IMG/VR virus record: IMGVR_UViG_3300021961_000121
Span: 1 to 56,218 of that record
Strand: one strand, 5' to 3'
Source of the DNA: a virus
Lineage: Duplodnaviria; Caudoviricetes
Length of the DNA: 56,218 nt
Numbering within the stretch: position 1 is the first letter of the stretch; each line of letters opens with the position of its first letter. Position numbers and translations under genes: made by a program. This document shows, piece after piece, positions 4,825 through 52,309 of this stretch. The notes below the pieces were generated by a model that saw nothing but the letters and a program-made list of their open reading frames with translations, was not told the DNA's origin and searched no databases.

Positions 4825-4832
4825 TATAAATA
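4825..4832 (-). promoter_or_regulatory. Putative late promoter motif TATTTATA
   Basis: Copy of the intergenic motif seen more than 15 times in this window. Confidence 0.55.
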
Positions 4833-7095: not shown

Positions 7096-7107
7096 AGATA
7101 TAAATAG

Positions 7108-18979: not shown

Positions 18980-19037
18980 ATATTTCTCCTTTAATTGGTT
19001 AACCTCATATAAATATGGAAATAAAACTTTTTAATAC

Positions 19038-21991: not shown

Positions 21992-22061
21992 TATATTTCT
22001 CCTAAATTCAAAATTTGGTTTTCCTTATAATAAATACACCAAAAATTAGGGAAACGGATAG

Positions 22062-22343
22062 TTATTTGTTGGGAGTAAAGGTATTTGTTTCAATATCGTA
22101 TTCACCATCCCCATATTTCTCTCGTAATCGTTTACCTAATTCAGATTCTTGAACTCTAATTTCTCCATAAGCGTTAATCAATGTGGCTTTTTCATTTTTT
22201 AACTCTTGAAAGGTGGATTCCAACTCTTGGATATTTAATTCAACTTCTCCGATTCGAGAAATGATTGTCAATACCCGTTGTTGAAGTTCTCGTATCTCGG
22301 TGACTTCTTGTTCTGTAAATTGCTTTACTAATTTTTCTTCCAT
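22062..22343 (-). CDS. Coiled-coil hypothetical protein
   Basis: 93 aa heptad-rich, ends KYGDGEYDIETNTF; late motif at 22369-22376. Confidence 0.72.
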   Translation of the reverse strand: MEEKLVKQFTEQEVTEIRELQQRVLTIISRIGEVELNIQELESTFQELKNEKATLINAYGEIRVQESELGKRLREKYGDGEYDIETNTFTPNK

Positions 22344-22384
22344 AACACTTGTATTAGTTTGTTTACAGTATAAATATGTAAAAT

Positions 22385-23224
22385 TTATTCATTACCACTT
22401 TTAGTAGGGGTATCATTACTGCTTAATTTTGGAGAATTTCCCCAAGATACCTTACCAACTGAAAATCTTCTCTTGGTATTGTTAACCATACCCACATATT
22501 CTGGAACAATGTATGCTTTTGCGGTCAAGGTAATGTTGGCTCTTGTGATTCTGTCTTCGTTTACCAATGCGGTTGTTTCAAATCCATAAGAATCAGCTTT
22601 AATTACAAATTTGTACCTTTCACCAAAGGAACGACCTTGGAAATAGATAATTTGTTCAACAATCTTATTGACTTGTTCCATATAGTCACACCAAACTACA
22701 ACTTCGTATTCCAAGTTTACATAATCAGGTCTTTCAACCGACATAAACTCTCTAACAGGTTGTTGGTCCGTTAAAATTGAAAATTGGTCGTATCTATTTG
22801 CCTTTGTATACTTTCGTTCAAACATTTGGTGAGCATCTTCGTTTTCAGCCACCTTTAACTTGGATAATTCCGTGTTGATTGAAAGATTATTTCTTTTAAA
22901 TGAGATAACCGGTACTAATAACATACCATTATCATCTTGCATATACCCTCTTTGTTGGGCAGCTACCCACTTTTCGGGCGATGCGTAAATAACAGGAACA
23001 GGAATGAATCTACCATCAGCTTCTACTGTTGGTCTAACATCCTTTTCCAAGAAATCCTTAAACGCAGAATCAACATCGTAAATACCGACTGAAATGTTCT
23101 TTACATTATCCTGGTCTCTACGAACTTGCTTTGCCTTATTCAACTTTACATCTTGTGTAGTAGATGATTGAGTTTGAGTAAGGGTTGGTTTTGTATTATC
23201 GGTATTTCTATACTTGTTAGCCAT
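22385..23224 (-). CDS. Tail terminator/completion protein (T4 gp15-like)
   Basis: VPVIYASPEKW, P.ISF.R, Y...MEQVNKIVEQI; lies after neck genes and before sheath. Confidence 0.75.
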   Translation of the reverse strand: MANKYRNTDNTKPTLTQTQSSTTQDVKLNKAKQVRRDQDNVKNISVGIYDVDSAFKDFLEKDVRPTVEADGRFIPVPVIYASPEKWVAAQQRGYMQDDNGMLLVPVISFKRNNLSINTELSKLKVAENEDAHQMFERKYTKANRYDQFSILTDQQPVREFMSVERPDYVNLEYEVVVWCDYMEQVNKIVEQIIYFQGRSFGERYKFVIKADSYGFETTALVNEDRITRANITLTAKAYIVPEYVGMVNNTKRRFSVGKVSWGNSPKLSSNDTPTKSGNE

Positions 23225-23751
23225 TACAATCCCATTGGTATAGAGTTATTATTCTGATTTGAATTACCATAGTAAGTATCTTCCAAGTTAAGGGTAGTCA
23301 ATCTTGTTGCGTGTGAATCACAAATAATAGAAATTGAGTAACCTTGAGTATCACCACCATCCCAAGTAGATGGATTTTTACCGGCAAAGAATTGTCTTTC
23401 GTAGTGAGTATCAATCAAGAAATAAGTGTCGTTATACCAAACCACATCGCCAATTTCAGGAACAATACCCCTATCAATCAGATTATCTTTTAAGAAATTA
23501 AAGGTTACTTCACGAGTATACGACTGACCAAAGTCATCAGAGATTTGAGTAGCTTGAACATACTCAAATAACGCAGGAACTTTTACAGGTTGTTTGTAAA
23601 TCTTGTCCTTACCCTCACCATATAAATTTGATTTGGTACTTTCAACTGATAACATATAATAATACACTTCCGTATCAATGATATCATTGATGAGTTCCTT
23701 ATTCAAGGTTCTGAATAAAGACATATCTCGTTGTCCACCAAATAGTGCCAT
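23224..23751 (-). CDS. Neck/head-closure protein (T4 gp14-like)
   Basis: VYYY...NLYGE...PEIGDVV; synteny. Confidence 0.75.
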   Translation of the reverse strand: MALFGGQRDMSLFRTLNKELINDIIDTEVYYYMLSVESTKSNLYGEGKDKIYKQPVKVPALFEYVQATQISDDFGQSYTREVTFNFLKDNLIDRGIVPEIGDVVWYNDTYFLIDTHYERQFFAGKNPSTWDGGDTQGYSISIICDSHATRLTTLNLEDTYYGNSNQNNNSIPMGL

Positions 23752-23755
23752 TTTA

Positions 23756-24919
23756 TTATCCTATATAAATTGGTCTTGGAACTTTAGCAAGAGTTGATTC
23801 TAAAAAGTCGGCCTCATCTCTTTTTGCTTCCATTTGAGCTCTACGAGATGTTGCCTCCAACACCTCTTTTAACTCGGTCAATAAGTTTTCTTTTTCAGCA
23901 GATGCTTCGTTACGAAGGTCAGCCCCATCCAAAGTTACATCAGAACCTGGAATAGGAATTGATGAGAATTTAGCACGCACCGCTCCTAACATTTCTTTAG
24001 CAAGAGCAAGCGTGTATCTGGCAATCCATTGTTTTCCGGCAGAATTAATCGAAGTGTATTGTAATCTTTGAAAAGGAACATTTGAAAGGTCACTCACCAC
24101 ATTTGATTTTGCAATAGGTGAGTTTGTTTCAGAGTCCAATGTGTATTCAAAGTGAACTTTTGTACCGGCGTCTGATGTTGATGGGATTGGAAACAATCTA
24201 ACACGCGTTCCATCAATATGAAATCCATATGATGATTTACGAATAAGGTCGTTGAACTCAATCGCTTGTAAACGAAGAAGGTCATCAAACATTGGTTGCA
24301 TCATAAATGATACACCAGGCGAATATGCTCCCCAACCGAATGTATTTAACATTTGTTGAGAACCCATACCCGTACCTACAAATGGGTCAAAGTATCTGAT
24401 AATTGCGGGTGGTTGGTAGTGATAGAATCTACGAATAGTCACACCATCAGTAACCGAACCACTTTCCAAATTTACAACATTACCATCACCAAGGTCATAA
24501 ATTTGTTGACCAGACGCCATTTCAAATGAACCAGTGTAGACAGTAACACGACCACCACTTAATGCTTCAGTACCATAATCTTTGGCAATGTTTACAACAC
24601 CCGCCATATTAGCGTTAATTTGTGTATCTCTCAAATCCAAATTCAAATCAGAACCTTGAAGAGATAACATATTCTCTTTGGCTCTATACTGATTTACTTG
24701 TGATGAGTATTCATTGGTTGCTTCTTCAAAACAAGTGAAGAAGTTGATGTCTTGCAATTCAATATCTACGATTGGGTATCCCAAACGCTTAGCGCACCAA
24801 TCAGCTACCTTCGGAGCGTCTGACGCGAATTGTGCTTCAGAATCAAAAAATCCGAATGGGGTAGATGTTCCGGCTGTAAATGAGCCCGAACCAGGCCAAA
24901 TTGGAATGTTAACTGCCAT
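23756..24919 (-). CDS. Neck/head-tail adaptor protein (T4 gp13-like)
   Basis: RLGYPIVDIEL, WIARYTLALAKEMLG..R.KF..IP.P...TLDG. Confidence 0.85.
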   Translation of the reverse strand: MAVNIPIWPGSGSFTAGTSTPFGFFDSEAQFASDAPKVADWCAKRLGYPIVDIELQDINFFTCFEEATNEYSSQVNQYRAKENMLSLQGSDLNLDLRDTQINANMAGVVNIAKDYGTEALSGGRVTVYTGSFEMASGQQIYDLGDGNVVNLESGSVTDGVTIRRFYHYQPPAIIRYFDPFVGTGMGSQQMLNTFGWGAYSPGVSFMMQPMFDDLLRLQAIEFNDLIRKSSYGFHIDGTRVRLFPIPSTSDAGTKVHFEYTLDSETNSPIAKSNVVSDLSNVPFQRLQYTSINSAGKQWIARYTLALAKEMLGAVRAKFSSIPIPGSDVTLDGADLRNEASAEKENLLTELKEVLEATSRRAQMEAKRDEADFLESTLAKVPRPIYIG

Positions 24920-24946
24920 TTAAACTCCTATACTATTATCTCACTA

Positions 24947-24954
24947 TATAAATA
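24947..24954 (-). promoter_or_regulatory. Putative late promoter motif TATTTATA
   Basis: 18-bp context (24940-24957) identical to 46947-46964. Confidence 0.65.
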
Positions 24955-24963
24955 GTATGAGGT

Positions 24964-26640
24964 TTACCTTTCCAAGTTTTTCATAAATGAAACAATAATA
25001 TACCTCGTACCCTTTGTTACTGCCCTAGCTCCGTGTTTGTGAGTGATGTTGCCAGGGTGAATGGTAGCATAACCAATTGGATTCTTTATCAATTTCTTTT
25101 GTCTTCTAAACCAAGTACCACCACCTTCATATTCATCGAGGTCTGAAAGTTGAATCAGACAAGTGATGTCCGATGAGTCGTGATGGATTGATAGGTGACC
25201 TTGAGCAGATGGGACATATTTTGCAAGGAAGTTTTCACTCTGCATATCATCCCAACCTCGACCTTCCAACGCCCACATATAAATCGAGAATGGCATTACA
25301 AACAATCGAAGGATTTCCATATAGGTATCGTGTAATCCAATCACATCCAACACCATATCGGTAGTTGGGTAATTGTCGTGTCTATCAGTAGTCCAACACC
25401 TACAATGTTCAGCCTCCTCCCTAATCATCTTACAAAACTCTTCCGTAAAAAGAGGGAATGAAAAACAATTATCAAATGGTTCATCCGTAATCAATTCCCA
25501 TTCTTTGGTTCGTGCTGAATATGTGATAAATCGTTCAATCCAAGCTTGAGGGTCTTCAAAATAAGTGTATAATTCAGGATGAAGTTTTCCACCAGTTTCA
25601 AGTAGGTTTACCCAATCTTCAATACGAATTGGCCAAGTTTGATTTTTTGCATATTCATATGAGGTATTCTGATTTACTACTTGTAGGGTTTTGTTATTAT
25701 AAAGATATTTGAATTTTTCTAAAATTCTATTTTTTAAAAGTTCAGTATCGGATATTGTCGATACAATAGCCGCATTACCTAACAATAAATTCATCAAGTT
25801 TCCAGTATCAGTAGAAACAATCTTAACACCACCATACATCATTTCAAGAGCAGTGATACAATAAGTTTCAATGTATTGTGATGGGTAAATCCAATACTCT
25901 GAAGATTTAATTTGGGTGTAGAGTTCAGTTGGAGATAAGTTATCTAAAAAATGAACCCCATCATATAACCCCTTATAATCCTCATACCAATCTAAAGCGT
26001 ATGGCGGAGTAGCGACCCACAAACTTGCGTTTGGAATCATTTCCAAGATTTGAGGCCAGATTTCCAATAGTTCTTTTAACCCTCTATCAGGAGCAGATGT
26101 GTATATGAATTTATTTTCATAACGAGGGGTGTCTATATTTTGCCAGTCATATGGGTCTATTGCGTTTTCAATTACAACAATTTTGTTTTCAATTTCAGGA
26201 TAAGTTTTTATCAATAAAGTTTTGTGATAATTTGAAACCGCAACGACTGATGTAATTCGACTATCGGTTAGATAATCCATTCCCTTGTTTGGAAGTTCTT
26301 CACCATTGTACCACGGATAAAACTCTTCGTTGTGAATCCAAAAAAACGATTTATCGTAGGTGACATTTAACGATTCTAATAATGGAATGTAGTGAATATA
26401 AGCCGTAGCGATTACAACATCAAAATGTTGGTTTTCTTCAAGTTCGGTAATGTGTTGGTAAAGTACCCCATCGCAATTGTCAGAAATAACTTCACCACTC
26501 ACAATAACATCGTGACCTTCTGCAAACAAATAGTCAGCAAGTTTAATAACTGAATATTCAGTACCACCCGCACCCAACTCTAACCAAGTGTTTTTGTTGA
26601 ATGGTAATTTTTGATAACCTGTGTATATTAATACTCTCAT
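24964..26640 (-). CDS. Fusion of GT-B (GT4-like) glycosyltransferase and PLOD-type lysyl hydroxylase 2OG-Fe(II) domain
   Basis: N-term: GAGGTE, YTSAPDRGL, YPSQYIETYCITALE. C-term: FPLFTEEFC...PTTDM...HHDSS...YEGGG...HPGNITHKHG...GTRYIIVSF, matching the LH/PLOD catalytic-domain pattern. Confidence 0.85.
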   Translation of the reverse strand: MRVLIYTGYQKLPFNKNTWLELGAGGTEYSVIKLADYLFAEGHDVIVSGEVISDNCDGVLYQHITELEENQHFDVVIATAYIHYIPLLESLNVTYDKSFFWIHNEEFYPWYNGEELPNKGMDYLTDSRITSVVAVSNYHKTLLIKTYPEIENKIVVIENAIDPYDWQNIDTPRYENKFIYTSAPDRGLKELLEIWPQILEMIPNASLWVATPPYALDWYEDYKGLYDGVHFLDNLSPTELYTQIKSSEYWIYPSQYIETYCITALEMMYGGVKIVSTDTGNLMNLLLGNAAIVSTISDTELLKNRILEKFKYLYNNKTLQVVNQNTSYEYAKNQTWPIRIEDWVNLLETGGKLHPELYTYFEDPQAWIERFITYSARTKEWELITDEPFDNCFSFPLFTEEFCKMIREEAEHCRCWTTDRHDNYPTTDMVLDVIGLHDTYMEILRLFVMPFSIYMWALEGRGWDDMQSENFLAKYVPSAQGHLSIHHDSSDITCLIQLSDLDEYEGGGTWFRRQKKLIKNPIGYATIHPGNITHKHGARAVTKGTRYIIVSFMKNLER

Positions 26641-27932
26641 TTTGACTCCACAATGTAATTTAAAACTTGTTCTCTTTCATAGTATCTTGTTCTATCCATC
26701 CAATTTTGAAGCCGATGAGCTCTACCCTCTTCTTCGTTCCAAGACCAATCTTCTTTTCCAAGTTCAAGGATTCGTTGGTGAATAAATGGGTCATAATAGT
26801 CCTTGATTAACCTGGCTCTACGATTAATATCAGTAGAGTTATTGTCAACCGTGGAATTTCTATTATTGTATTGTACATATAACATTTTTTTTAGGTGAAT
26901 CATACGAGTTTCAAGGAATGTTTTAACAATCAACTCATAATCATCCGCTACTGAAATGTTTCTACTATGTCCTCTAATTTTATGATAAGTATCACGATGC
27001 CAAATTCTACAATGATTCGGCATTCCAATATTAAATCTAATGGATTTGGGGTTGATGTCGGGATAGTGATGAGTTAACCAAGTAACTCCGTCAAATTCTT
27101 CCCAAGTGTGACCAGCATATCCCCAATCGAAGAAGTTTTCAGGGTGACCATACCAATCATCACCAATACGACCATATTGTCGTGGTGTGCCATCTTCATA
27201 TACCTCGGTTACATCCGTATATACAAATCCAGCATCTGGATATTGTTTAGTTGCGTTTAAAACATCTTCCAAACAAGTGGATATAAGGACATCATCGTGG
27301 TCTAATTCAAATAGCCACTCCCCATTCGATAACATAGCAGCTCTATGTTTTACCTCACCAACATTACCACTTGAATTTGGGGTCATACGATGGATATTTA
27401 CTCTATAATCCGTACTTGCAATTTCCTTCAGATACTCCCAAGTACGATAATCACCCTCGGGTGAATCATCAACCACAACCCATTCCCAATTTGGGTAAGT
27501 TTGGTTCTTCAACGACTCATATGTTCTGAATATTCGTTCGTTTGTCTTATAAGTTGGTGTGAATACTGATAGAATGGGTGTTTCATCATTACCATAGACC
27601 TCTTTTTGTGATTTACAAGCCCAAAAGGTAGATTGACACACCACATCGTTAGCTAATATGTTATCAGGTATGATTTCATCGTAAGTTCGTAACTTACTAC
27701 TAACCATAATGTGATTTACCATTTCGTTGACCTCAACAAAATGGTTTCCAATGGTTATAATGATATCAGGTCGGTGAATTGCCAAATGGGACTTAAAATC
27801 CACCGAACTCTCATATGAATATAAGATTACATCTTCGTGTAAACCTTCTTCCCAGTAGATATCGGACTGAATTCTAATCTCACCGAACCTATCCCATCCA
27901 TAAATAAGAGCAGTTGGTAAACTTGTCTTCAT
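26637..27932 (-). CDS. GT2 family glycosyltransferase
   Basis: SVFTPTYK, WEWVVVDDS, LDHDD (DxD), ADDYEL; likely start MKTSLP at 27932. Confidence 0.88.
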   Translation of the reverse strand: MKTSLPTALIYGWDRFGEIRIQSDIYWEEGLHEDVILYSYESSVDFKSHLAIHRPDIIITIGNHFVEVNEMVNHIMVSSKLRTYDEIIPDNILANDVVCQSTFWACKSQKEVYGNDETPILSVFTPTYKTNERIFRTYESLKNQTYPNWEWVVVDDSPEGDYRTWEYLKEIASTDYRVNIHRMTPNSSGNVGEVKHRAAMLSNGEWLFELDHDDVLISTCLEDVLNATKQYPDAGFVYTDVTEVYEDGTPRQYGRIGDDWYGHPENFFDWGYAGHTWEEFDGVTWLTHHYPDINPKSIRFNIGMPNHCRIWHRDTYHKIRGHSRNISVADDYELIVKTFLETRMIHLKKMLYVQYNNRNSTVDNNSTDINRRARLIKDYYDPFIHQRILELGKEDWSWNEEEGRAHRLQNWMDRTRYYEREQVLNYIVESK

Positions 27933-27933
27933 A

Positions 27934-28533
27934 TTATCTATAAGGTTCTCCCCCCACCCAAAGTACAAACGATTTGCGAGTTCCTTTGGTTACAGGCGTT
28001 ACTCTATGTAAATAAAATGATGGGAAAATCACAGCGGCGCCTTGGTGTCGTGTTGCTACCAAATGTTGTCCGATATTAAATTCTAAATCACCACCCTCAT
28101 ATTCTTCAGGCGATGATAGTTGAACTGTTACTGAAATCTTCCTTTGATTTTGAATGCCAATACCACAATCCATATGCCAGTCGTAATGACCACCACCTTC
28201 ATAGTATTCGGTGTATTGGATTTGTTCGTTCATTGTTGATAAATCCAACTTCCACATAATATCATTTGCTTCAACAATCATATTGTGAAGTTTACGATAA
28301 ACCCACTCCCACTCTTCGTTTTGTGGGCACCACTTAACTTGTGATTTTCTATAATTTGAAACTTTAGAGCGGTCATCTTGACCGGTAGCTGCAACCTCAA
28401 ATGGTAATTGAAGAGTCATCTCCTCAATTTTTACCAATTCTTCTGGAGCGAATCCTTCTTTGAACCAATAATAGTCCGTGTAGTTTACATCACTACGATG
28501 TGAGTTCCTATCAAATGTAAATTTCTTATCCAT
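27934..28533 (-). CDS. 2OG-Fe(II) oxygenase (PKHD/prolyl-hydroxylase-like)
   Basis: YDWHMD (HxD), RKISVTVQL, YEGGDL, FPSFYLHRVTPVTKGTRKS. Confidence 0.9.
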   Translation of the reverse strand: MDKKFTFDRNSHRSDVNYTDYYWFKEGFAPEELVKIEEMTLQLPFEVAATGQDDRSKVSNYRKSQVKWCPQNEEWEWVYRKLHNMIVEANDIMWKLDLSTMNEQIQYTEYYEGGGHYDWHMDCGIGIQNQRKISVTVQLSSPEEYEGGDLEFNIGQHLVATRHQGAAVIFPSFYLHRVTPVTKGTRKSFVLWVGGEPYR

Positions 28534-28548
28534 AACAATTCAGTTTAC

Positions 28549-28556
28549 TATAAATA
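28549..28556 (-). promoter_or_regulatory. Putative late promoter motif for the modification-enzyme operon
   Basis: TATTTATA 15 nt upstream of the oxygenase ATG. Confidence 0.65.
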
Positions 28557-28568
28557 TAGAACTGAATG

Positions 28569-31500
28569 TTAATAAGAACCACTAATGTAAGTTTCTACAA
28601 TCCAAATTTTATCACCGCTTTGATATCCGTGTTTTTTGAATGTAAGTTTGTTCAAAGAGTTGTTCCACTCAAAGTATCCACCGGCGAGGATATTACCCTT
28701 TTCACCAGAACCACCACCAACACCTTGAGCGCCGGCGCTACCACTATGACCTTGGTTACCTTTAGGGCCGGTATCACCAGCAGCACCGGTATTACCTTTA
28801 GGGCCAGTAGCGCCCGTTGAACCGGTAGCTCCCTTATTACCTTGAGCACCTTGGTTACCTTGAGGGCCCGTAGCACCCGTTGAACCGGTAGCTCCCTTAT
28901 TACCTTGAGCACCTTGGTTACCTTGAGGGCCCGTAGCACCCGTTGAACCAGTAGCTCCTTTATTACCATCTGCGCCAGTATTACCTTTAACACCTTGAGC
29001 ACCCACGGAACCAGTAACACCTTTGTTACCCACGGCGCCTTGAGAACCTTGAGAACCTTGAGAACCAATTGAGCCGGTTACACCTTTGTTACCAACGGCA
29101 CCAGTAACACCTTTAGGACCAGTACCACCTGTCGAACCTTGAGCACCCGTATTACCTTGAGCGCCAGTATTACCTTGAGGACCAGTACCACCTGTCGAAC
29201 CTTGAGCACCCGTATTACCTTGAGCGCCAGTATTACCTTGGGGGCCTGTGGCACCGGTTACACCTTTTGCACCCGTATTACCTTGAGCGCCTTGGTTACC
29301 TTGAGGACCAGTAGCACCAACCGAACCTTGAGCACCGGTTGCGCCCGAATTACCTTTAGCACCTTGAGCACCCGTAGCACCACCTGAACCAGTTATACCC
29401 TTGTTACCACTTGCACCTTGAGGACCTTGGTTACCTTGTCCACCACCAGCACCACTAATGTGGGTTGTATTTTTAACAATGGAAAGACCTGTTACATATC
29501 GTGCACCTGGGGTACTACCACCAGGGGTGTATCCCACATACCAACTGAATGTACCATTTGAATCCGCCGGAGATGTGATTGTATATTTTCTTCTTTCCCA
29601 AGTAAGCGTTTGTCCTAATTCTGCGTGGTATAATTGATATGAAGAAATTAATGTTCCAGTTTCATAGCCAGTAGCGACATTGTTTGCGGTATTATTAGCA
29701 AACATTCTCATATGGAACATACCGGTGTTTCCAATCCAATCAGGAGTAATAGCAACCCACAATTCACAAGTGTATTGTGTTGATGGTTGAATACCTTCCG
29801 ATATGTATACTTCATATTCAGTATTAGTACCACCCGAAGTGTTTTGTTCCATTACAAAGCCAGACCTACCACTTTCAGGGTTGTTAGCTAATGGAATTAC
29901 TATGTTTGTAGGATTTGAAATGGATTCATATCCAGGGTCCAATTGTCCATCAGAGAAGAATGGATTACGAACGGCGTTACCATCCGAACCAAGTACACCT
30001 TTAGGACCAGTACCACCGGTTACACCTTTAGGACCAGTAGCACCAGCCGAACCCGTTACACCTTTAGCACCTTGAGCGCCCGTAGAACCAGTTACTCCCT
30101 TATTACCAGCAGAACCTTGAGCACCTTGTGGGCCAGTAGCACCCTGATTACCCGTGGCACCTTTGTTACCTGCGTCACCGGTATTACCTTTAACACCTTG
30201 AGCACCTGTGGAGCCAGTTACACCTTTATTTCCGGCAGAACCTTGAGCACCTTGAGAGCCCTGGTCACCTTGAGCACCTTGAGGACCAGTAACACCGGCA
30301 GAACCTTGAGCACCTTGAGCACCTTGAGAACCTTGTGGACCTTGAGCGCCCGTGTTGCCTGTGTTACCTTTATTACCTTGCGGACCAGTAGCACCTGTTG
30401 AACCCGTAACACCTTTATTTCCGGCAGAACCTTGAGCACCTTGAGAACCCTGGTCACCTTGAGCACCTTGAGGACCAGTAACACCGGCAGAACCTTGAGC
30501 ACCTTGAGCACCTTGAGAACCTTGTGGACCTTGAGCGCCCGTATTACCTTGAGCACCTTGGTTACCTTGAGGACCGGTAGCGCCTGTTGAGCCGGTGACA
30601 CCTTTATTACCGGCAGAACCTTGAGCACCTTGAGGACCAGTAGCACCACCAACTCCAATAACACCTTTATTACCAGCAGAACCTTGAGAACCTTGAGCAC
30701 CTTGAGAACCCGTTACACCTTTTGCGCCAGTATTACCTTGAGCACCTTGGTTACCTTGAGGACCGGTAGCACCAACCGAACCTTGAGCACCCGTATTACC
30801 TTGAGCACCTTGGTTACCTTGAGGACCGGTAGCGCCTGTTGAGCCGGTAACACCTTTATTACCAGCAGAACCTTGAGCGCCTTGAGCACCTTGAGAACCC
30901 GTTACACCTTTAGGACCAGTCGCACCTTGAGCACCTTGGTTACCTTGAGGACCGGTAGCGCCTGTTGAGCCAGTAACACCTTTATTACCAGCAGAACCTT
31001 GAGAACCTTGAGCACCTTGAGAACCCGTTACACCTTTTGCGCCAGTATTACCTTGAGCCCCTTGAGGACCTTGAGGGCCGGTCGCACCCGTTGAACCGGT
31101 AACCCCTTTGTTACCACTTGCACCCGTAGCGCCTTGTGGACCTGTAGCACCTGTGACACCCTTTGGACCTGTATTACCGGCAGCACCTTGAGCACCTTGT
31201 GGTCCTTGAGCACCTTGTGGTCCTTGAGCGCCAGTATTACCTGCCGAACCTTGAGAACCAAGAGAACCCATATTGCCTGAACGACCAATTTCAAATCCGT
31301 GTTGATACCAAGTACCACCGGCCGATTCGGATGGTCGTTTCCAATATATTCTTAAACCTTCACCACCACCATATTCTTGTGTTCTAACTCGTATTGAATA
31401 TGCAGTATTCGCAGTTAGTGAAATTGTTCCCGTAGTAGTTCCAAGTGCAGGAGTTCCCCTACCACCATAAAATGAAGCTACTACCGTATTATTAATTATC

Positions 31501-34409
31501 AATTCAACCGAATCATCCGATTCTGCGGTGAATGTATATGTACCTGTTTCTGAAGGATAGAATGTACCCCATACTTGAACTGCGAAGTATGACCCAACAT
31601 TTGGGACTCCGATACCAGCACCTGTCAATGTGGTATATGATGTCCAATCAAGTAATACGCTTCTATTAGAAATACCCTGCGAATATAAAGTGGAGTTTGT
31701 GTAATTCGCATCAAAAAATTTATTGAAATCATTACTATCTGTTGGATAGTAATAATATTGTGATGTAGAACCATTTCCGGCGTGAGTAGACCATACTTCA
31801 TAATTTAAAGTATCATATCCAAACAAACTTCCCTTGTTACCACTAGCGCCAGTAACACCTTTGTTACCTTGAGGACCGGTAGCGCCTGTTGAACCTTGGG
31901 CGCCAGTATTTCCCGCAGCACCTTGAGCACCTTGAGAACCCTGGTCACCTTGAGCACCTTGGGGGCCCGTATTACCGGCTGCGCCTTGAGCACCTTGAGG
32001 ACCTTGAGGGCCCGTAGCTCCTTGGTTTCCAGTAACACCTTTATTACCACTTGCGCCCGTAGCACCTTGTGGACCTGTAGCACCTTGGTTACCCGTAACA
32101 CCTTTATTACCCGCGGCTCCAGGATTACCATCTTCACCAATTCCACCTTGAGCGCCCGTGGAGCCGGTAACACCTTTGTTACCACTTGCACCCGTAGCAC
32201 CTTGAGGACCTGTAGCACCCGTGACACCTTTTGGACCTGTATTACCAACAGCGCCAGTAGAACCTTTAGGACCTTGACCACCTTGAGCACCGGTTGAACC
32301 AGTTACTCCCTTATTACCAGCAGAACCTTGAGCACCTTGTGGGCCAGTAGCACCTTGGTTACCGGTAGCACCTTTGTTTCCAGCTGCACCTTGAGGTCCT
32401 TGTGGGCCTTGTGGACCTTGAGCGCCGGTTGAACCTTGTGGGCCTGTAGCACCTGCTGCCCCTTGTGGGCCAGTTGGACCAGTCGCACCTTGGTTACCGG
32501 TAGCACCTTTGTTTCCAGCCGCACCTTGAATACCTTGAGCACCTGTAGCGCCTTGAGGACCAATTGGACCAGTAGCACCTTTTGGACCTGTATTACCGGC
32601 AGCACCTTGAGCACCTTGTGGTCCTTGAGCACCTTGAGGGCCGGTAGCACCTTTGTTTCCAGCAGCACCTTGAGGACCTTGGTTACCGATAGCCCCACCG
32701 GCTCCGGTGGCAGGTACACCATTATGACGCATAAATTTAACATCATAGAATGCTGACCCTGCGGTGTACATTGATGAATCTAAATAAAATGTTAGACCAG
32801 TACCGGCATATACAGTTCTTACTAAAAAGGTTTGAGCCGTAGAAGAATCATATACAAAGTATCTAATATATCCATCTATATGGTAGTGGATGAAAAATAT
32901 ATCAGCATTCGCCTCATATGGTCCAAAGAATTCACCACGATACGCACCATTTTCGTAAATTTGAGCATAGTTTCCGGCGTGTGGATACCAAGCATAGTCA
33001 ATTGAAGAATAAGATGCGTCTGTGGTTGGGTCAGTATTAAGACCCATCATTTTATATGTACTTGTGTTACATTTGAATGATACTAAAGCTCCATCAGAAA
33101 TACCTTGGTCAGAATACGCCTGAGTAGACCAACCACTTGCGTTTGGAGCGTCTATATTATATAATTGTGGACTACCATTTTGGTTTACATTGACTACCGT
33201 ACCACTCGTACTTATGGTGTAGTCGGCAGCGTTCGCACCTGTAGCACCTTGAGCACCTTGAGGACCTGTTGGACCAGTACCGCCTTGAGGGCCGGTAGCA
33301 CCTTGAGGACCGGTTGGTGATGGTCCTTGAGCACCTTGAGAACCTTGAGCACCTTGAGGTCCTTGAGCACCTTGAGGTCCTTGAACACCTTGAGGTCCTT
33401 GAGCACCTTGAGGTGAAGAACCGGTATTACCTTGAGCGCCCGTTGGGCCTGTTGGAGCAGAACCTTGAGCGCCCGTTGGGCCTGTTGCCCCAGCTGGACC
33501 ATTAGCACCTTGTGGGCCAGTAGCACCTTGTGGGCCTGTATTACCTTTAGACCCCGTACCACCTTGTGGACCAGTAGCTCCCGTAACACCTTTAGGACCT
33601 TGTGGGCCTGTTGGACCACTGGGTCCTGGAGCAGTATCTGGATCTAAACCATAACATTCTTCGCAGTTCGGATGCCATTCCATAACTTCCGCACCACAAT
33701 CGTATGGTGATTCCGGTTGATATCCTTCAACGAACCAACATTGTTCAGGGTCATATAAGTTAGGTGGTAATTCACCCTCATTACATTCGGGACCACTACA
33801 CGGACCAGGCATTAATTTAACATAGCTCGCAACGGGTGGGTCTATATTAAAACAATCAATGACTTGGACATTCATTCCTGAATCAGGAGGACCACAATCA
33901 GGCATACCACGGAACAAATACAAAGAGAACCCAGGTGGATTGTGTACAATGTAGTTGTTTAATAGGTAAACATCGACATCTTCAATGTCAATTGTCGTGA
34001 TTGTTTGATTTTGTAATGTATAAACTGAAGTGATTAATTCTTCAGTAATGACTCCATCTTCAAATTTGATTAAGGAGTCAGTATTAACACTAATGTCATT
34101 AGCGTATATAAATTTGTATGTACCACTACCATCCTTAATAAGGATTTTTTGATACAACCATACAATTATGTTACCACCATTAATTTCAAGTGTATCATAA
34201 GTGTTTGGGAATGTATATGCTTTTCGGACTGACGCTGAAGTGAGTGATGTAGAAGAAATATCAGTAGAAGTCCAAGTTTTCCAATCCGATTCGTTTAAAC
34301 CAAGACCAGGTAACTGAACACCCGCTACTAATGACCCACTTACAAGATTTTCTACGACTATTGATGATGAATCATATAATCGTACTAATTGTCCGTTTTT
34401 TACGCTCAT
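28569..34409 (-). CDS. Collagen-like fibre protein A: Hint domain, Cys-rich domain, four Gly-X-Y blocks separated by three globular domains (one PA14), short C-terminal domain
   Basis: ...[14 protein letters not shown]|P at aa 157; 8-Cys segment; long GXY runs; PA14 motif [27 protein letters not shown]. Confidence 0.88.
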
Positions 34410-34424
34410 ATTATATCTCTTCTA

Positions 34425-37400
34425 TTAGTAAGAACCACTTACATACATATGAAGAATGTATGTGTTTCCACCATTATTGAATTTCAAAACACCTCGTGTA
34501 GAATCCCAAGTTAAACCAGGAGATACATTACTAATTAATGTACCAAGAGCGTTTTCACCCTTTTGTCCTTTAGAACCTTGAGCGCCCGTAGCACCACCAG
34601 CACCTTGAGCGCCTTGAGCACCTTGAGGTGACGCTCCTTGAGCTCCCGTAGCACCTTGAGGACCTTGAGCACCTTGAGCGCCAGTCGGAGAACTACCTTG
34701 AGCACCTTGTGGTCCTTGAGGACCTTGTGCACCTTGAGCACCCGTTGGAGAAGCACCTTGAGCGCCAGTTGGACCTTGTGGGCCTTGTGCACCTTGAGCA
34801 CCTTGAGGACTTGAACCTTGAGCACCCGTGGCACCACCAGCACCTTGGGCACCTTGAGCACCCGTTGGTGAGGCACCTTGAGCTCCCGTAGCACCACCAG
34901 CACCTTGAGCACCTTGAGCACCCGTTGGTGAGGCACCTTGAGCACCCGTAGCACCTTGAGGACCTTGAGCACCTTGAGCACCTTGTGGTGAAGCACCTTG
35001 AGCGCCTTGTGGACCTTGAGGTCCTTGAGCACCTTGAGCGCCTGTTGGAGAACTACCTTGAGCACCTTGTGGTCCTTGTGGACCTTGTGCACCTTGAGCA
35101 CCTTGAGGACTTGAACCTTGAGCACCTTGTGGTCCTTGAGGACCTTGAGCACCTTGAGCACCTTGAGGTGAGGCTCCTTGAGCTCCCGTAGCACCTTGAG
35201 GACCTTGAGCACCTTGAGCGCCAGTCGGAGAACTACCTTGAGCGCCAGTTGGGCCCTGAGCACCCTGAGCACCTTGAGAACCCGTAGCTAAAGAACCTTG
35301 AGCACCTTGAGAACCTTGTGGACCTTGTGCACCTTGAGCACCTTGAGGACTTGAACCTTGAGCACCTGTGGCACCACCAGCACCTTGGGCACCTTGAGCA
35401 CCGGTTGGTGACGCACCTTGCGAACCAGTTGGACCTTGTGGACCTTGTGCACCTTGAGCACCTTGGGGTGAAGCACCTTGAGCACCGGTAGCCCCACCCG
35501 CACCTTGAGCACCTTGAGCACCGGTTGGTGAAGCACCTTGAGCACCTGTAGCACCTTGTGGGCCTGTATTACCTTTTGCACCTTGAGGACTTGCACCTTG
35601 AGCGCCCGTAGCACCACCAACACCTTGAGCACCTTGAGCACCTTGGGGTGAAGCACCTTGAGCACCTTGTGGTCCTTGAGGACCTTGTGCACCTTGAGCA
35701 CCGGTTGGTGAACTACCTTGAGCACCTGTAGCACCTTGTGGGCCTGTATTACCTTTTGCACCTTGAGGACTTGCACCTTGAGCACCCGTAGCACCGCCAA
35801 CACCTTGAGCACCTTGAGCACCTTGGGGTGAAGCACCTTGAGCACCTTGTGGTCCTTGAGGACCTTGAGCGCCTTGAGCACCTGTTGGAGAACTACCTTG
35901 AGCACCTTGTGGTCCTTGTGGACCTTGTGCACCTTGAGCACCTTGAGGACTTGAACCTTGAGCACCCGTAGCACCACCGGCACCTTGAGCACCTTGAGCA
36001 CCTTGTGGTGAAGCACCTTGAGCGCCAGTTGGACCTTGAGGTCCTTGAGCACCTTGAGCTCCCGTTGGAGAACTACCTTGAGCACCTTGTGGTCCTTGTG
36101 GACCTTGTGCACCTTGAGCACCTGTTGGAGAACTACCTTGAGCACCCGTAGCACCACCGGCACCTTGAGCACCTTGAGCACCTTGTGGTGAAGCACCTTG
36201 AGCGCCAGTTGGACCCTGTGGACCTTGTGCACCTTGAGCACCTTGAGGACTTGAACCTTGAGCACCCGTAGCACCGCCGGCGCCTTGAGCACCTTGAGCA
36301 CCTTGTGGTGAAGCACCTTGAGCACCGGTTGGACCTTGAGGTCCTTGAGCACCTTGAGCTCCCGTTGGAGAACTACCTTGAGCACCTTGTGGTCCTTGAG
36401 GACCTTGTGCACCTTGAGCACCTTGAGGACTACTACCTTGAGCACCTTGAGGACCAGTCGCACCTTGTGGACCAGTAGCACCTTGTGGGGATGCACCCTG
36501 AGCTCCTTGAGAACCTACTGCACCTTGAGCACCTGTAGCACCTTGGGGTGAAGCACCTTGAGCACCCGTAGCACCTTGTGGTCCTTGAGGACCTTGAGCG
36601 CCTTGAGCACCGGTTGGGGAAGCGCCTTGAGCACCTGTAGCACCTTGTGGGCCTGTATTACCTTTTGCACCTTGTGGAGAAGCACCTTGAGCACCCGTAG
36701 CACCTTGTGGTCCTTGAGGACCTTGTGCACCTTGAGCACCTTGAGGACTACTACCTTGAGCACCTTGTGGTCCTTGAGGACCTTGAGCACCTTGAGCACC
36801 TTGGGGTGAAGCACCTTGAGCACCCTGTGGTCCTTGCGGACCTGTAGCACCTTGAGCACCTTGAGCACCTTGAGGACTTGCACCTTGAGCACCTTGTGAA
36901 CCTTGAGGTCCTTGTGCACCTGTAGCACCTTGTGGTGAAGAACCTTGAGCGCCTTGGTTACCTTGAGGACCGGTAGCACCTTGAGCTCCTTGAGCACCTT
37001 GAGGACTACTACCTTGAGCACCTTGTGGACCTTGAGGACCTTGTGCGCCTGTAGCACCTTGCGGACTTGAACCTTGAGCACCCGTAGCACCTTGAGGACC
37101 GGTAGCACCTTGAGCACCTTGAGCGCCGGTTGGTGAACTACCTTGAGCACCTTGAGGACCAGTTGGACCTTGTGCACCTTGAGCACCCTGAGGACTTGAA
37201 CCTTGAGCACCCGTAGCACCTTGAGGACCTTGTGCGCCTGTAGCACCTTGTGCGCCTGTAGCACCTTGTGGACTTGCACCTTGAGCGCCGGTTGGACCAG
37301 TAGCACCTTGTGGACCAGTAGCACCTTGTGGACTTGCGCCTTGAGCACCTTGTGGACCTTGTGCACCTTGAGCACCTTGAGCACCTTGTGGTGCGGTTTG

Positions 37401-38213
37401 TACTGCTCCTTGAGCACCCGTAGCACCTTGTGGACCTTTAGGACCAACAGGACCTTGTGCACCTGTAGCACCTTGAGCACCAGTCGGACCGGCAGCTCCA
37501 GCCGCACCTTGAGGGCCGGTAGCACCTTGAGGGCCGGTAGCACCTTGAGGACCGGTAGCACCTTGAGGACCTTGATAACCTTGAGCACCGGTAGGACCAG
37601 TTGGACCGGTAGCACCTTTAGCACCTTGAGGGCCGGTAGGACCATCAGCACCTTTAGCACCTTGTTGACCTTGAGCTCCTTGAGGACCTTGAGCTCCTTG
37701 AGGACCTTGTGCACCTGTAGCACCTTGAGCTCCTTGGGGACCGGTAGGACCTTGACCACCTTGAGCACCTGTAGCACCTTGTGGGCCGGTAGGACCTGTT
37801 GGACCAGTGGGACCTGTGTTGTGAAGGAGGACTCCACCAACATAATAGTTGTGGTCAGGTTCTACTTCAATGGATATAAAATATGTCGGGTCTTCTACAT
37901 ACGATACCGATAAAATTTCAATATCGTTATGAAGAGTTGTATTATTATTGTATGCGTTTATCGGAGAAACCCAATCGCCCATTAGGGAAAGGACTTTGGA
38001 ATCTACTGATAAGTTGGATGTTGTACCATCCGAAAATTTTACTTGGATGTAGTCGTTTAATTCTCTATGGAATACGCTTACTACTTTGTTTTCTCTAACG
38101 GAACGAGTTGATAAATCATAACCCTTTACGGTATCACCAACTTGGATATTAGAAATAGGTGTAAGAACTCCGTTGATTTCAAGTAAAGTGTCTTTATGTA
38201 AACCGTGTATCAT
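34425..38213 (-). CDS. Collagen-like fibre protein B: Hint domain, about 1,090 aa of periodically interrupted Gly-X-Y, short C-terminal domain
   Basis: I..IQVGDTV...[12 protein letters not shown]|TGPTGPT at aa 132; GAQ/GPQ/GAT repeats. Confidence 0.88.
34570..37390 (-). repeat. Degenerate coding tandem repeat, mostly 60 bp (20 aa)
   Basis: Successive 60-nt lines align in register from about 34570 to 36540; unit G[AS]SP[QT] plus five GXY triplets, with 17- and 23-aa variants further 5'. Confidence 0.9.
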
Positions 38214-38229
38214 TTCTATATCCTAACTA

Positions 38230-39279
38230 TTAGTTGTTAACTCTAAATGCTACTTGAATAGCGTATAAATCAGAGCCATTACCAAACTTATTCAAATCTA
38301 ATGTAACCCTATCCCCTTTTGCGAATGGATAACCATTACCAAAAGTGAATACTACATTATTACCGGCAGCACCCAACATAGTAGTTACAGCACCACCAAC
38401 AGGCCCACCATTTGTGAACATAGTAATTTCAAAGTTATCAGGAGGAGTATTAGTAGTTTCTGGCGAAACATACACTTCACCAATATATCCGGCAGCAGGA
38501 GCGGTCCACACAGCAAACGCCTGATTATTGACTTGTAAATCGGTTGTAGTTCCCCACGGCATTGAACCTTGTCCTTGACCTTTGAAGTCAACATAGGTTT
38601 GATGTGGGTGGATATTTTCAGTAATTTGAGCTGATGATGAAATAACACCTTCAGTATTCAATTTTGTTTTAACACCTGATGTGAAGGTTGTGGATGTGGT
38701 ATCCAATTGGATGTTATCTGCGTTTACAATGATACCATTGTTAGCAGATGCAACATTTATTGTTCTATTTGCAGCAATTGTACCACCACCAGTAAGACCA
38801 TTACCTGCGGTGATGGATACTGTGGAGTGGTCGATGTGTTCGTTAGCAACAAATCCGGTTGTAGAGTCGTGGTCGATTTGAACTGATGATGAAATAACAC
38901 CTTCAGTATTCAATTTTGTTTTAACTCCGTTTGTAAATGTTGCGGATGTAGTATCTAATGATAATGTCCGTGTTGCTGCAATCGTACCACCACCACTTAA
39001 ACCATTCCCTGCCGTAATAGACACCGTGGAGTGGTCAATGTGTTCATTTGCTACGAACCCTGTTGTTGAGTCGTGGTCGATTTGAACTGATGATGATATC
39101 AACCCACCTGGATTAATATCAGACAAGACATTAGCGCCTGTCCTAAAATCAACATTCCCTGCACTATCAAGTACAAGGAACTTGTCTGTGTCAAGTCCGG
39201 CGTTAACTACGCTGGACAAATTTAACGAGTTTAATGATGCATCACTTCCGGAGGTGATGACTTTTTTCCAACTTGGCAT
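38230..39279 (-). CDS. Virion fibre/structural protein with internal duplication
   Basis: ISSSVQIDHDSTTGFVANEHIDHSTVSITAGNGL twice; N-terminus WKKVITSGS. Confidence 0.7.
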   Translation of the reverse strand: MPSWKKVITSGSDASLNSLNLSSVVNAGLDTDKFLVLDSAGNVDFRTGANVLSDINPGGLISSSVQIDHDSTTGFVANEHIDHSTVSITAGNGLSGGGTIAATRTLSLDTTSATFTNGVKTKLNTEGVISSSVQIDHDSTTGFVANEHIDHSTVSITAGNGLTGGGTIAANRTINVASANNGIIVNADNIQLDTTSTTFTSGVKTKLNTEGVISSSAQITENIHPHQTYVDFKGQGQGSMPWGTTTDLQVNNQAFAVWTAPAAGYIGEVYVSPETTNTPPDNFEITMFTNGGPVGGAVTTMLGAAGNNVVFTFGNGYPFAKGDRVTLDLNKFGNGSDLYAIQVAFRVNN

Positions 39280-39297
39280 ATCCTTTATCCTATCTTG

Positions 39298-39344
39298 TGG
39301 TTGGAAACACTTTCGTGCCCACTTCCCTTTCGGGCCTACAACCA
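39298..39344 (-). ncRNA. Candidate structured cis-regulatory RNA (three-way junction, two GAAA tetraloops)
   Basis: Minus strand UGGUUG-UAGG-CCC GAAA GGG-AAGU-GGGCAC GAAA GUGUUU-C-CAACCA, between a late motif and the ATG. Confidence 0.6.
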
Positions 39345-39388
39345 GGGTTTAACTTGAGTTACTCCATAATAAATAGTTTTATAGAAAT

Positions 39389-39414
39389 AAAAAACCCCAC
39401 CGAAGTGGGGTTTT
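39389..39414 (-). terminator. Intrinsic terminator
   Basis: AAAACCCCAC-TTCG-GTGGGGTTTTTT on minus strand. Confidence 0.88.
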
Positions 39415-39440
39415 CTTTATTAGCAAAATCTATAAATTAT

Positions 39441-39641
39441 TTATTTCATTTTAGCTAATTCACTTTGCAATTTAACAGCAAGTTTGTAAACTGATTCTAC
39501 TTGTTTACCTTTAAAAGTAGCTTCACCCAATCCGATGAGAAGTGCCTCAACCTCACCTTTGGTAAGATTGAGGGTCACTTCACCTTCAGATTTATTTAAA
39601 ACCTCTTTAGGTTGTAAACCAAGTTTAGATGCTATACCCAT
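39441..39641 (-). CDS. Small hypothetical protein (possible fibre chaperone)
   Basis: 66 aa, directly after fibre gene and before terminator. Confidence 0.65.
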   Translation of the reverse strand: MGIASKLGLQPKEVLNKSEGEVTLNLTKGEVEALLIGLGEATFKGKQVESVYKLAVKLQSELAKMK

Positions 39642-46953: not shown

Positions 46954-46961
46954 TATAAATA
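46954..46961 (-). promoter_or_regulatory. Putative late promoter motif TATTTATA
   Basis: Intergenic; context identical to the 24947 copy. Confidence 0.65.
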
Positions 46962-52270: not shown

Positions 52271-52275
52271 AACTA

Positions 52276-52309
52276 CAAATATACAAAAAAGGTTTGGAAT
52301 ATCCAAACC
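52276..52309 (-). promoter_or_regulatory. Bacteroidota-type promoter fused with a terminator-like hairpin
   Basis: GGTTTGG-ATATT-CCAAACC-TTTTTTG-TATATTTG, 5 nt before ATG. Confidence 0.72.

Follow-up and report, generated by a model that had tools for sequence, protein, structure and literature searches.

Can a tailed phage modify the lysines of its own collagens? The formation of hydroxylysine and its glycosylation count as animal traits, to which giant viruses are the known exception, and the question is raised by the IMG/VR virus record IMGVR_UViG_3300021961_000121, estimated to be 29% complete, whose 56,218 bases constitute the window, i.e. the whole stretch of DNA that we analysed. On its minus strand, two very long collagen-like genes are followed by three enzyme genes, the last of which is an open reading frame (ORF) of 558 amino acids (aa) that we call GT4-LH, after a GT4-type glycosyltransferase domain and a lysyl hydroxylase (LH) domain of the type found in the PLOD enzymes. 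We propose, at a probability of roughly 60%, that GT4-LH is a bifunctional collagen-maturation enzyme; judged from its sequence, it would hydroxylate lysines in the Y position of the G-X-Y triplets of the phage fibres and then glycosylate by means of the fused GT4 domain. A preliminary description of this DNA had reported the ORF at exactly the positions that the ORF list gives, and its functional parts are placed as follows.

24964..26640, minus strand: GT4-LH fusion ORF, 558 aa (ORF list; Pfam GT4 and OGFOD2-like matches; human LH3 at E=9e-31; 100% self-match in its own record)
24964..25587, minus strand: PLOD-type LH domain, aa 352-558 plus stop (phmmer matches to LH3 and mimivirus L230; Foldseek match to 6ax6_B)
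25216..25218, minus strand: Y475, tyrosine of the 2-oxoglutarate (2OG) pocket, aligned to L230 Y814 and LH3 Y656
25171..25185, minus strand: HHDSS, with the Fe(II) ligands H486 and D488 (HxD), aligned to L230 H825/D827 and LH3 H667/D669
25003..25059, minus strand: HPGNITHKHGARAVTKGTR, with the distal Fe ligand H536 and the 2OG-binding R546, aligned to L230 H877/R887
25606..26640, minus strand: GT4-type GT-B glycosyltransferase domain, aa 1-345 (Pfam and Foldseek)
25843..25869, minus strand: EX7E motif ETYCITALE (E258...E266), both Glu invariant in 53 homologues

The lysyl hydroxylase domain

By homology, the C-terminal domain of GT4-LH is a PLOD-type lysyl hydroxylase domain with an intact Fe(II)/2OG active site. 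In phmmer searches against all PDB chains, human LH3 is matched at E=9e-31 by the whole protein and at 1.3e-31 by the domain alone, the alignment spanning query residues 352-553 and residues 502-713 of the LH3 chain, i.e. the whole LH domain of about 200 aa. L230 follows at E=4.9e-20 for the whole protein and 8.5e-21 for the LH domain alone, and the next-best 2OG oxygenase in the PDB is PiuC, at only E=0.37 (full protein). With the LH3 and L230 matches far beyond chance, the PLOD-like assignment made in the preliminary description holds, and the domain groups with PLOD and L230 and not with unrelated 2OG oxygenases. All four motifs on which that assignment had been built are present, with their codons checked (HHDSS at aa 486, YEGGG at 504, HPGNITHKH at 528 and GTRYIIVSF at 544), and the LH3 counterparts given there can be seen in the HMMER alignment as hhdss, yeggg, hpgrlthyh and gtryimvsf.

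The active site is conserved residue by residue. Y475, H486, D488, H536 and R546 do not vary at all among 53 aligned full-length homologues, whose identity to GT4-LH is 45-87%, H536 aligning in addition to LH3 H719 and R546 to LH3 R729; residues of the L230 construct were numbered from the printed HMMER alignment. The roles of these positions in L230 and LH3 follow Guo et al. 2018 (PMC5802723) and Scietti et al. 2018 (PMC6082870), the former describing L230 Y814, H825, D827, H877 and R887 as experimentally essential. An AlphaFold2 model of GT4-LH built on an alignment of 53 homologues (mean pLDDT 89.6, pTM 0.69) contains a double-stranded beta-helix fold together with the N-terminal helical part specific to LH, and Foldseek places this predicted fold on the crystal structure of the L230 LH domain (6ax6_B) with a TM(target) of 0.87 and a root-mean-square deviation of 2.2 Å over 205 columns at 30% identity.

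A GT-B partner in place of the LH3 transferase

The N-terminal domain is, from sequence and predicted fold, a GT4-type GT-B transferase and not the GT-A domain of LH3. Three Pfam models recognise it: PF13439 (Glyco_transf_4) over aa 70-163, marginally, with 29.5 bits against a cut-off of 28.5; PF00534 (Glycos_transf_1) over aa 184-286 with 32.6 bits against 26.4; and PF13692 (Glyco_trans_1_4) over aa 185-306 with 34.3 bits against 27. The model of the PLOD GT-A domain, PF25342, has no match in GT4-LH, though it matches the LH proteins P0243, P0217, P0242 and P0170 that our searches retrieved. The twin-Rossmann GT-B fold is present in the predicted model, and its best matches outside the LH enzymes are PimA (2gej, TM(target) 0.71), a Bacillus anthracis GT4 enzyme (2jjm, 0.68), PglA (0.67) and MshA (0.65); over the structural matches to GT4 enzymes (PimA, PglA, MshA, BshA, WaaG and glycogen synthases), E values range from about 1e-13 to 1e-16 at 12-17% identity. 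The EX7E motif, a hallmark of GT4 enzymes, lies in the C-terminal Rossmann domain, and the GT4 domain is expected to be retaining. The replacement of the LH3 GT-A domain by a GT4-like GT-B domain, as the preliminary description had it, is thus borne out by Pfam and Foldseek together. Its further suggestion of a "convergent" bifunctional enzyme stands for the architecture, in which the transferase module differs, and falls for the LH domain, which is homologous to that of PLOD.

The collagens as candidate substrates

28569..34409, minus strand: collagen A, 1946 aa, 367 G-X-Y triplets in six blocks with globular parts between them (PF01391, E=8e-147)
34425..38213, minus strand: collagen B, 1262 aa, 331 triplets (PF01391, E=2.8e-78)

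The canonical LH substrate X-Lys-Gly had been noted to recur throughout collagen A, and counting confirms it without exception: all 45 lysines in the triplet runs occupy Y and none X, so that each stands in a G-X-K-G context (GNKG 25, GPKG 11, GAKG 5, GVKG 2, GSKG 1 and GEKG 1). The eight lysines of collagen B are likewise all in Y, with none in X. Other charged residues are scarce in the 367 triplets of collagen A (8 D, 2 E and 1 R), and because lysine is almost the sole charged residue there, these lysines would not serve for salt bridges with acidic partners. Proline shows the opposite placement, with 67 residues in X and a single one in Y. In a count over the 64 distinct collagen ORFs at homologous cassettes, comprising 13,592 triplets, lysine is found 2788 times in Y and 73 times in X, and proline 2028 times in X and 120 times in Y.

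Between its collagen blocks, collagen A carries a PA14 domain of carbohydrate-binding type (aa 940-1028, E=4e-11), which is 68-78% identical in related loci; this conservation suggests that collagen A is a receptor-binding fibre. Collagen B has a very regular interrupted structure, in which a first block of 46 triplets is followed by about 45 units of 6-8 triplets (mostly 6), each with a 2-residue break, giving a period of about 20 aa.

Linkage of enzymes and collagens in phage genomes

27934..28533, minus strand: Oxy199, small 2OG-Fe(II) oxygenase, 199 aa, P4H/PiuC-like (PF13640, E=3e-15; phrog_61, E=1e-35)
26637..27968, minus strand: GT2-family (GT-A) glycosyltransferase, up to 443 aa (PF00535, E=5.6e-17)
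23756..24919, minus strand: neck or head-tail adaptor gene (phrog_211)
22385-23224, minus strand: gp15-like gene (PF16724)

A scan of IMG/VR returned 84 stretches that encode relatives, and 80 loci were kept for local tblastn and ORF analysis. Where the sequence upstream of the enzyme genes extends for 1000 nucleotides (nt) or more, as it does in 47 related viral loci, it always contains a collagen-like ORF on the same strand; of the 33 loci with less than 1000 nt, 6 have one there. Oxy199 is encoded in 56 of the 58 related loci whose sequence upstream of the transferase genes is 700 nt or longer. The order collagen-oxygenase-(GT2)-GT4(-GT25)-LH is conserved in these phages, and two phage backgrounds at least contain the cassette, the first (L003-L057 and L082) with the window's neck genes downstream and the second (L058-L081) without them. 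Most loci of the first background have GT2 between the oxygenase and GT4-LH; the oxygenase abuts the GT4 gene directly, with no GT2, in 13 loci (L005, L006 and 11 of the second background). The GT4 and LH matches are separated by 700-960 nt in L050-L053, L055, L056 and the second background, a gap that corresponds to the GT25 domain found in proteins of 788-850 aa. Within one protein, GT4 diverges much faster than LH, with identities to the window of 43-77% against 69-84% in L003-L056 (77%/84% in L003, 52%/79% in L050 and 43%/74% in L020), a pattern that would fit a hydroxylation step under conservation and a glycan step that diversifies.

The virus is an uncultured marine or estuarine T4-like myovirus whose closest deposited isolate is Microcystis phage Mel-JY01 (57.5% identity in the sheath and 58.3% in the major capsid protein), followed by the Flavobacterium "immuto" phages (37.9% and 53.7%) and then Rhodothermus phage RM378; from these isolate neighbours and a G+C content of 35-41% outside the collagens, our guess is that the host is a marine member of the Bacteroidota. 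In Mel-JY01 (L097, 28159-30065), PhoH is followed directly by a homologue of the neck gene (50% identity), a 175-aa gene, a gp15-like gene and the sheath, with no collagen-like frame in 30 kb and no GT4-LH match in the record. Relative to Mel-JY01, the window holds about 22 kb of additional fibre-module DNA (~24920-46980), in which both collagens and the three enzymes stand together with proteins of 1203, 690, 483 and 349 aa, and which looks like a hypervariable fibre module. That the syntenic site of Mel-JY01 has neither collagens nor enzymes supports the linkage of the enzymes to collagen.

A wider family of fused lysyl hydroxylases

GT4-LH is not a one-off: it belongs, as a two-domain form, to a large family of marine phages and bacteria, of which GT4-GT25-LH is the commonest form. 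A word-indexed protein search with GT4-LH retrieved 287 proteins at E<=1e-3. Among the 120 of these 287 matches that were listed, most are full-length proteins of 544-603 aa, and many others, 786-849 aa in length, contain PF01755 (GT25). Their sources are assemblies of JGI, ENA, Tara and Logan, in which the contigs reach ~209 kb, apart from one of 3.5 Mb. Those that a source names are called "hypothetical protein", "glycosyltransferase involved in cell wall biosynthesis" or "glycosyltransferase family 25 protein". An exhaustive search with the LH domain yielded 2319 cluster representatives at E<=1e-3, 562 at <=1e-10 and 87 at <=1e-30, and Pfam analysis of ten representatives identified GT4-GT25-LH, GT25-LH, GT25-LH-TPR, GT_PLOD-LH (the animal PLOD pattern, a label assigned by architecture) and GT25-GT_PLOD-LH proteins. 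Many LH architectures, including GT_PLOD-GT25-LH, are spanned by proteins such as P0052, P0123, P0127, P0138, P0217 and P0242.

We classified 267 stored proteins with hidden Markov models built from alignments and with phmmer, using exemplar domains validated by Pfam. GT4-LH accounts for 94 of them, LH only for 81 (many of them fragments), GT4-GT25-LH for 51 (49 plus 2 with split GT4), GT25-LH for 18, GT_PLOD-LH for 10 (9 plus 1 split), GT25-GT_PLOD-LH for 9 and other arrangements for 4. From their domain content, single chains may combine all three steps of collagen lysine modification, and the same LH clade appears repeatedly fused to transferases of collagen type by sequence, namely GT25 (the COLGALT1/GLT25D family) and the PLOD GT domain.

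For the evolutionary relationships, we used a quick maximum-likelihood tree of 128 LH domains (LG+G4, unrooted, with SH-aLRT as the sole support measure), leaving out rows with an LH domain shorter than 185 aa or with split hits. Most rows of PLOD architecture form a separate clade (SH-aLRT 99, 30 rows), and the window falls outside it, so that by this test GT4-LH is not an orthologue of metazoan LH1-3. The window's own clade (support 87, 31 rows) comprises 16 GT4-GT25-LH, 11 GT4-LH, 3 GT25-LH and 1 LH-only proteins, with the three-domain P0052 among the window's nearest neighbours. Two-domain forms are scattered among three-domain forms, and to account for the GT4-LH state the tree needs no fewer than 5 changes, of which starred branches force 3; on this unrooted tree, GT25 has therefore been repeatedly gained or lost.

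Proposed function and alternative explanations

The function that we propose for GT4-LH starts from what is observed, namely the domain identities, the intact catalytic residues, the predicted folds and the conserved order with the collagens. Late in infection, the LH domain would convert the G-X-K-G lysines of collagens A and B to 5-hydroxylysine (Hyl), acting in the cytoplasm of the infected cell on unfolded chains before the triple helix forms, and the fused GT4 would then move a sugar from a nucleotide sugar onto Hyl or onto a sugar already there. In the first option, GT4 would act directly on Hyl, as L230 does with glucose; in the second, an inverting GT-A enzyme (in the three-domain relatives GT25, here perhaps GT2) would supply the first sugar for GT4 to extend, a two-step route that would mirror the animal order of galactose (Gal) and then glucose (Glc). 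We lean weakly to the first, because GT2 and GT25 are dispensable in some loci and GT4 is always found with LH in this clade. GT2 and Oxy199 would add further modifications, Oxy199 by hydroxylating an unspecified target; since proline in these collagens is nearly all in X, the classical Y-position proline is not its expected substrate. In this scheme, we infer the substrate, the regiochemistry, the order of the steps, and both the acceptor and the donor of GT4.

Several observations weigh against this proposal. The related loci are not independent of one another, L020-L049 being largely near-copies of one phage type, and the variable presence of GT2 and GT25 argues against a single fixed order of sugar transfers. 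Lysine generally prefers the Y position in collagens, and given this preference, the K-in-Y counts are consistent with lysyl hydroxylation but do not discriminate. Threonine is abundant at Y in collagen A (117 of 367 triplets), where it is the second commonest residue, so that GT4 or GT2 could O-glycosylate Thr instead. In the active site, the pocket residue Cys691 of LH3, which is Cys in L230 too, is replaced by Thr509 (YEGGGT against yegggc), a threonine that is invariant in the 53-sequence family; Cys691 is described as "fully conserved among LH isoforms" in PMC6082870.

The bacterial homologues belong on the same side of the balance. Among GTDB species genomes, 8 loci encode relatives, with 5 full-length matches at 45-51% identity in Granulosicoccaceae, a Chromatiales symbiont metagenome-assembled genome (MAG), Rhodobacteraceae and Aliishimia; of the others, one holds the GT4 half only, one the LH half only, and L090 is a 28% match to part of GT4. 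Neighbourhood scans covered the 7 loci other than L090 and found no collagen-like ORF within about 10 kb in any of them, and the neighbours in L084 and L087 are housekeeping genes (GGDEF/EAL, aminotransferase, enolase-superfamily and oxidoreductase genes). Because the bacterial loci are without a nearby collagen ORF, tight collagen linkage is established for phages and not for bacteria. Collagen Pfam matches occur elsewhere in 4 of the 5 homologue-bearing bacterial genomes, a co-occurrence that is weak because the same search is positive in 4 of 14 control genomes. About 1.3 Mb from its GT4-LH homologue, the Aliishimia MAG contains a frame of collagen type (L091, G003:C1:1496089-1499256) with 158 triplets and with lysine 64 times in Y and once in X.

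Which alternatives could account for these observations? We consider it unlikely that LH hydroxylates the collagen lysines and that GT4 and GT2 glycosylate other residues, likeliest the Thr and Ser of G-X-T/S triplets, as in the bacterial collagen-like exosporium glycoproteins, the fusion merely co-localising two independent modifications. Acceptors of this kind are plentiful in collagen A, which has Ser at X in 55 triplets besides the Thr at Y; the structural neighbours of the GT4 domain have very diverse acceptors; and its faster divergence (43% against 74%, and 52% against 79%) would fit a variable glycan over a fixed Hyl linkage. That a few bacteria glycosylate collagen-like proteins, as the review PMC8968730 has it, also favours this explanation. 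The covalent fusion of GT4 to LH in 94 two-domain and 51 three-domain proteins among the 267 argues against two independent modifications, as does the frequent presence of GT4 in one chain with GT25, to which the Hyl galactosyltransferase of animals belongs. In the precedents L230 and LH3, moreover, the transferase fused to LH acts on Hyl or Gal-Hyl.

It is quite improbable, in our judgement, that the target is not the collagen fibres at all but another phage or host protein (by hydroxylation of lysine or other residues, as in ribosomal/OGFOD-type oxygenases) or a small molecule, and that adjacency to collagen reflects mere placement in a hypervariable fibre module. The sole Pfam label in the LH half, PF25238 "OGFOD2-like" (aa 352-455, 34.1 bits against a cut-off of 31), could be read in this sense, but PF25238 also matches proteins of PLOD architecture, e.g. 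P0243, and the label therefore does not separate the two readings; the similarity to LH3 extends over the whole 200-aa domain (E=1e-31). Bacterial homologues amid unrelated housekeeping genes, with no collagen nearby, would fit a different target, as would the 81 of 150 listed LH representatives without a fused transferase, many of which are fragments. Against these stand the collagen linkage in 47 of 47 loci, the joint absence of collagens and enzymes from Mel-JY01, and the collagen-like ORF with its lysines in Y elsewhere in the Aliishimia MAG. Least probable of all is an auxiliary "host takeover" cassette remodelling lipopolysaccharide or capsule, e.g. to exclude superinfecting phages, an idea that can draw on the PHROGs category of the matching families ("moron, auxiliary metabolic gene and host takeover"), on a homologue name that refers to cell wall biosynthesis and on such a role proposed, in PMC7029224, for fibre-region transferases of marine myophages (pelagimyophage), but that runs against the lack of any known role of PLOD-type protein-lysine hydroxylases in polysaccharide synthesis, the position of the genes within a structural block between fibre and neck genes, on the same strand and in overlapping or near-abutting frames, and their strict linkage to collagen ORFs.

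Collagen maturation by GT4-LH may be part of something larger. Tentatively, and at a little less than even odds, we envisage that tailed phages which infect marine bacteria possess a self-contained collagen maturation line for the bacterial cytoplasm, in which a lysyl hydroxylase, a further hydroxylase and between one and three glycosyltransferases would decorate kilodalton-scale virion collagen fibres with glycosylated hydroxylysine. With the same reserve, the GT4-(GT25)-LH proteins could be seen as single-chain prokaryotic counterparts of the animal LH/GLT25D/GGT pathway and possibly as relatives of its evolutionary source.

Surrounding genes, regulatory motif and occurrence in the environment

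All genes in this part of the window lie on the minus strand. In the direction of transcription, the major head protein (47758-49401) and PhoH (46981-47646) are followed by two proteins without a family (1203 and 690 aa), a 483-aa tail-fibre-like protein, a 349-aa tail protein, collagen B, collagen A, Oxy199, GT2, GT4-LH and the neck/adaptor protein, and then by a 175-aa protein, the gp15-like tail sheath stabiliser, the sheath, the tube and the baseplate hub. The order neck, 175-aa gene and gp15-like gene downstream of GT4-LH is conserved in related loci and in Mel-JY01. The collagens are placed shortly before the neck genes in this order; in T4 that is the position of wac (fibritin), and by this analogy collagens A and B may be neck or whisker-type fibres. 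GT4-LH starts with an ATG that has a GGAG 5 nt upstream and overlaps the stop codon of the upstream GT2 gene as ATGA. The true start of GT2 is probably a downstream ATG; its best PDB matches are the beta-1,3-GlcNAc transferase 6h1j and chondroitin and heparosan synthases. Oxy199 matches PKHD-type hydroxylases at E=1.8e-9. The structural region around the major head protein gene also holds a DNA methyltransferase (50948-52306, minus strand; phrog_498, E=7e-62) and the PhoH-like gene, likewise on the minus strand. A tRNA scan of the window found 0 tRNA genes.

28549..28556: intergenic motif, TATAAATA on the plus strand and TATTTATA on the coding one, 16 nt ahead of the start of Oxy199
24947-24954: second copy of TATAAATA, before the neck gene

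With these two copies, the motif stands on either side of the three enzyme genes, 16-30 nt upstream of a start codon. The window contains 13 copies in total, against 4.1 expected and a count that none of 100 shuffles reaches; further sites are at e.g. 22369-22376, 19008-19015, 46954-46961, 7099-7106 and 4825-4832. Of the 13, 11 are on the plus strand, opposite the genes, and the remaining plus-strand copies also fall in gaps between listed ORFs. On the coding strand, TATTTATA is embedded in quasi-palindromes (CTATATTTATAG, CTATTTATATAG), and it is possibly a promoter or regulatory motif of this phage group. A scan of 22000-39500 gave 46 sigma-70 promoter-like sites against 32.5 expected and 12 terminator-like sites against 13.8, which is uninformative; the single good terminator (~39390-39416) lies outside the cassette.

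Near-identical DNA is present in marine and estuary metagenome runs of several studies, the runs with a share of at least 0.63 of the sampled words belonging to two studies besides the two possible source studies. DNA contigs of run X3, whose study is not among the possible sources, cover 22562-25287 and 26530-28842 with 0-5 differing letters per contig and show only the recurrence of the same phage sequence. Metatranscriptome run X20 has a share of 0.05 of the sampled words, in contigs of 151-356 nt with 90-95% likeness that fall on the LH domain (25414-25584), GT2 (27669-27927) and Oxy199 (27951-28306). We do not count these contigs as expression, since presence in an RNA library does not show transcription and DNA is a possible source; positions that no RNA contig covers carry no information either.

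Significance

The module is common in marine and estuarine metagenomes, yet its members are annotated in their sources only as "glycosyltransferase" or "hypothetical". If the enzymes are active, collagen lysine modification reaches phages and bacteria, and the family provides a broad set of LH proteins for studying how LH, GT25 and PLOD-GT modules were combined in evolution. Active enzymes would also be tools that evolved for the bacterial cytoplasm, for the production of hydroxylated and glycosylated recombinant collagen in bacteria; according to PMC9546862, glycosylated collagen is not yet producible in bacterial expression systems.

A phage lysyl hydroxylase is not described in the full-text literature searched, a body of text outside which most subscription journals and all supplements lie. 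Megablast of window positions 20000-28600 against 50,697 phage records gave zero matches, and tblastn of the whole of GT4-LH against deposited phage records matched 16, none over at least 80% of the protein; no deposited isolate phage therefore shows the GT4-LH fusion, in a record set from which very close entries may be missing.

Comparison with known systems

Retaining GT4 enzymes such as PimA, MshA, BshA, WaaG, PglA and glycogen synthase share with the N-terminal domain of GT4-LH the twin-Rossmann GT-B fold, the EX7E motif and Pfam membership, whereas none of them is fused to a dioxygenase and their acceptors are lipids, small molecules and glycans, not collagen. The steps that follow collagen lysine hydroxylation, i.e. 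galactosyl transfer to Hyl and glucosyl transfer to Gal-Hyl, are assigned to enzymes including GLT25D1/COLGALT1 and mimivirus R699 in PMC12279948 and PMC9546862. Their family, GT25, recurs as a fusion partner of the window's LH clade; they are themselves GT-A enzymes, and the GT4 domain of the window, which has an unrelated fold, may do an analogous job.

Close to GT4-LH are the GT4-GT25-LH proteins of marine phages and bacteria (e.g. P0052 with 788 aa, P0123 with 847 aa, and P0120, whose sole annotation is "glycosyltransferase family 25 protein"). Their GT4 and LH domains are those of GT4-LH, with up to 80% identity in LH, and in L050-L056 they belong to the same cassette and phage lineage; they differ in the additional GT25 (PF01755) between GT4 and LH, a domain that the window protein lacks.

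With LH3/PLOD3, and with PLOD1 and PLOD2, GT4-LH shares an LH domain that is homologous over its full length and has the same HxD...H iron site and Tyr and Arg 2OG binders, as well as the combination of hydroxylase and glycosyltransferase on one polypeptide and a presumed X-Lys-Gly substrate. LH3 has an N-terminal GT-A domain (GT_PLOD) and a non-catalytic accessory domain, as described in PMC6082870, and in GT4-LH a single GT4-type GT-B domain replaces both, with Thr509 at the position of Cys691. LH3 resides in the endoplasmic reticulum, whereas GT4-LH is encoded by a phage and would be cytoplasmic. L230, which PMC9546862 characterises as a lysyl hydroxylase and hydroxylysyl glucosyltransferase for collagen-like proteins of the virus, is the structure that fits the LH model best. 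Like GT4-LH it is encoded by a virus, it is bifunctional as GT4-LH would be, and its five mutationally validated residues are kept here; it comes from a giant virus of a eukaryotic host and not from a tailed phage of a bacterium, and in sequence it scores below human LH3 (E=9e-21 against 1e-31). By its domains, GT4-LH is of this LH3/L230-type bifunctional kind, and what is new about it is the GT-B partner, the bacteriophage setting beside collagen genes of great length, and a prokaryotic and phage family so large and so varied in its modules.

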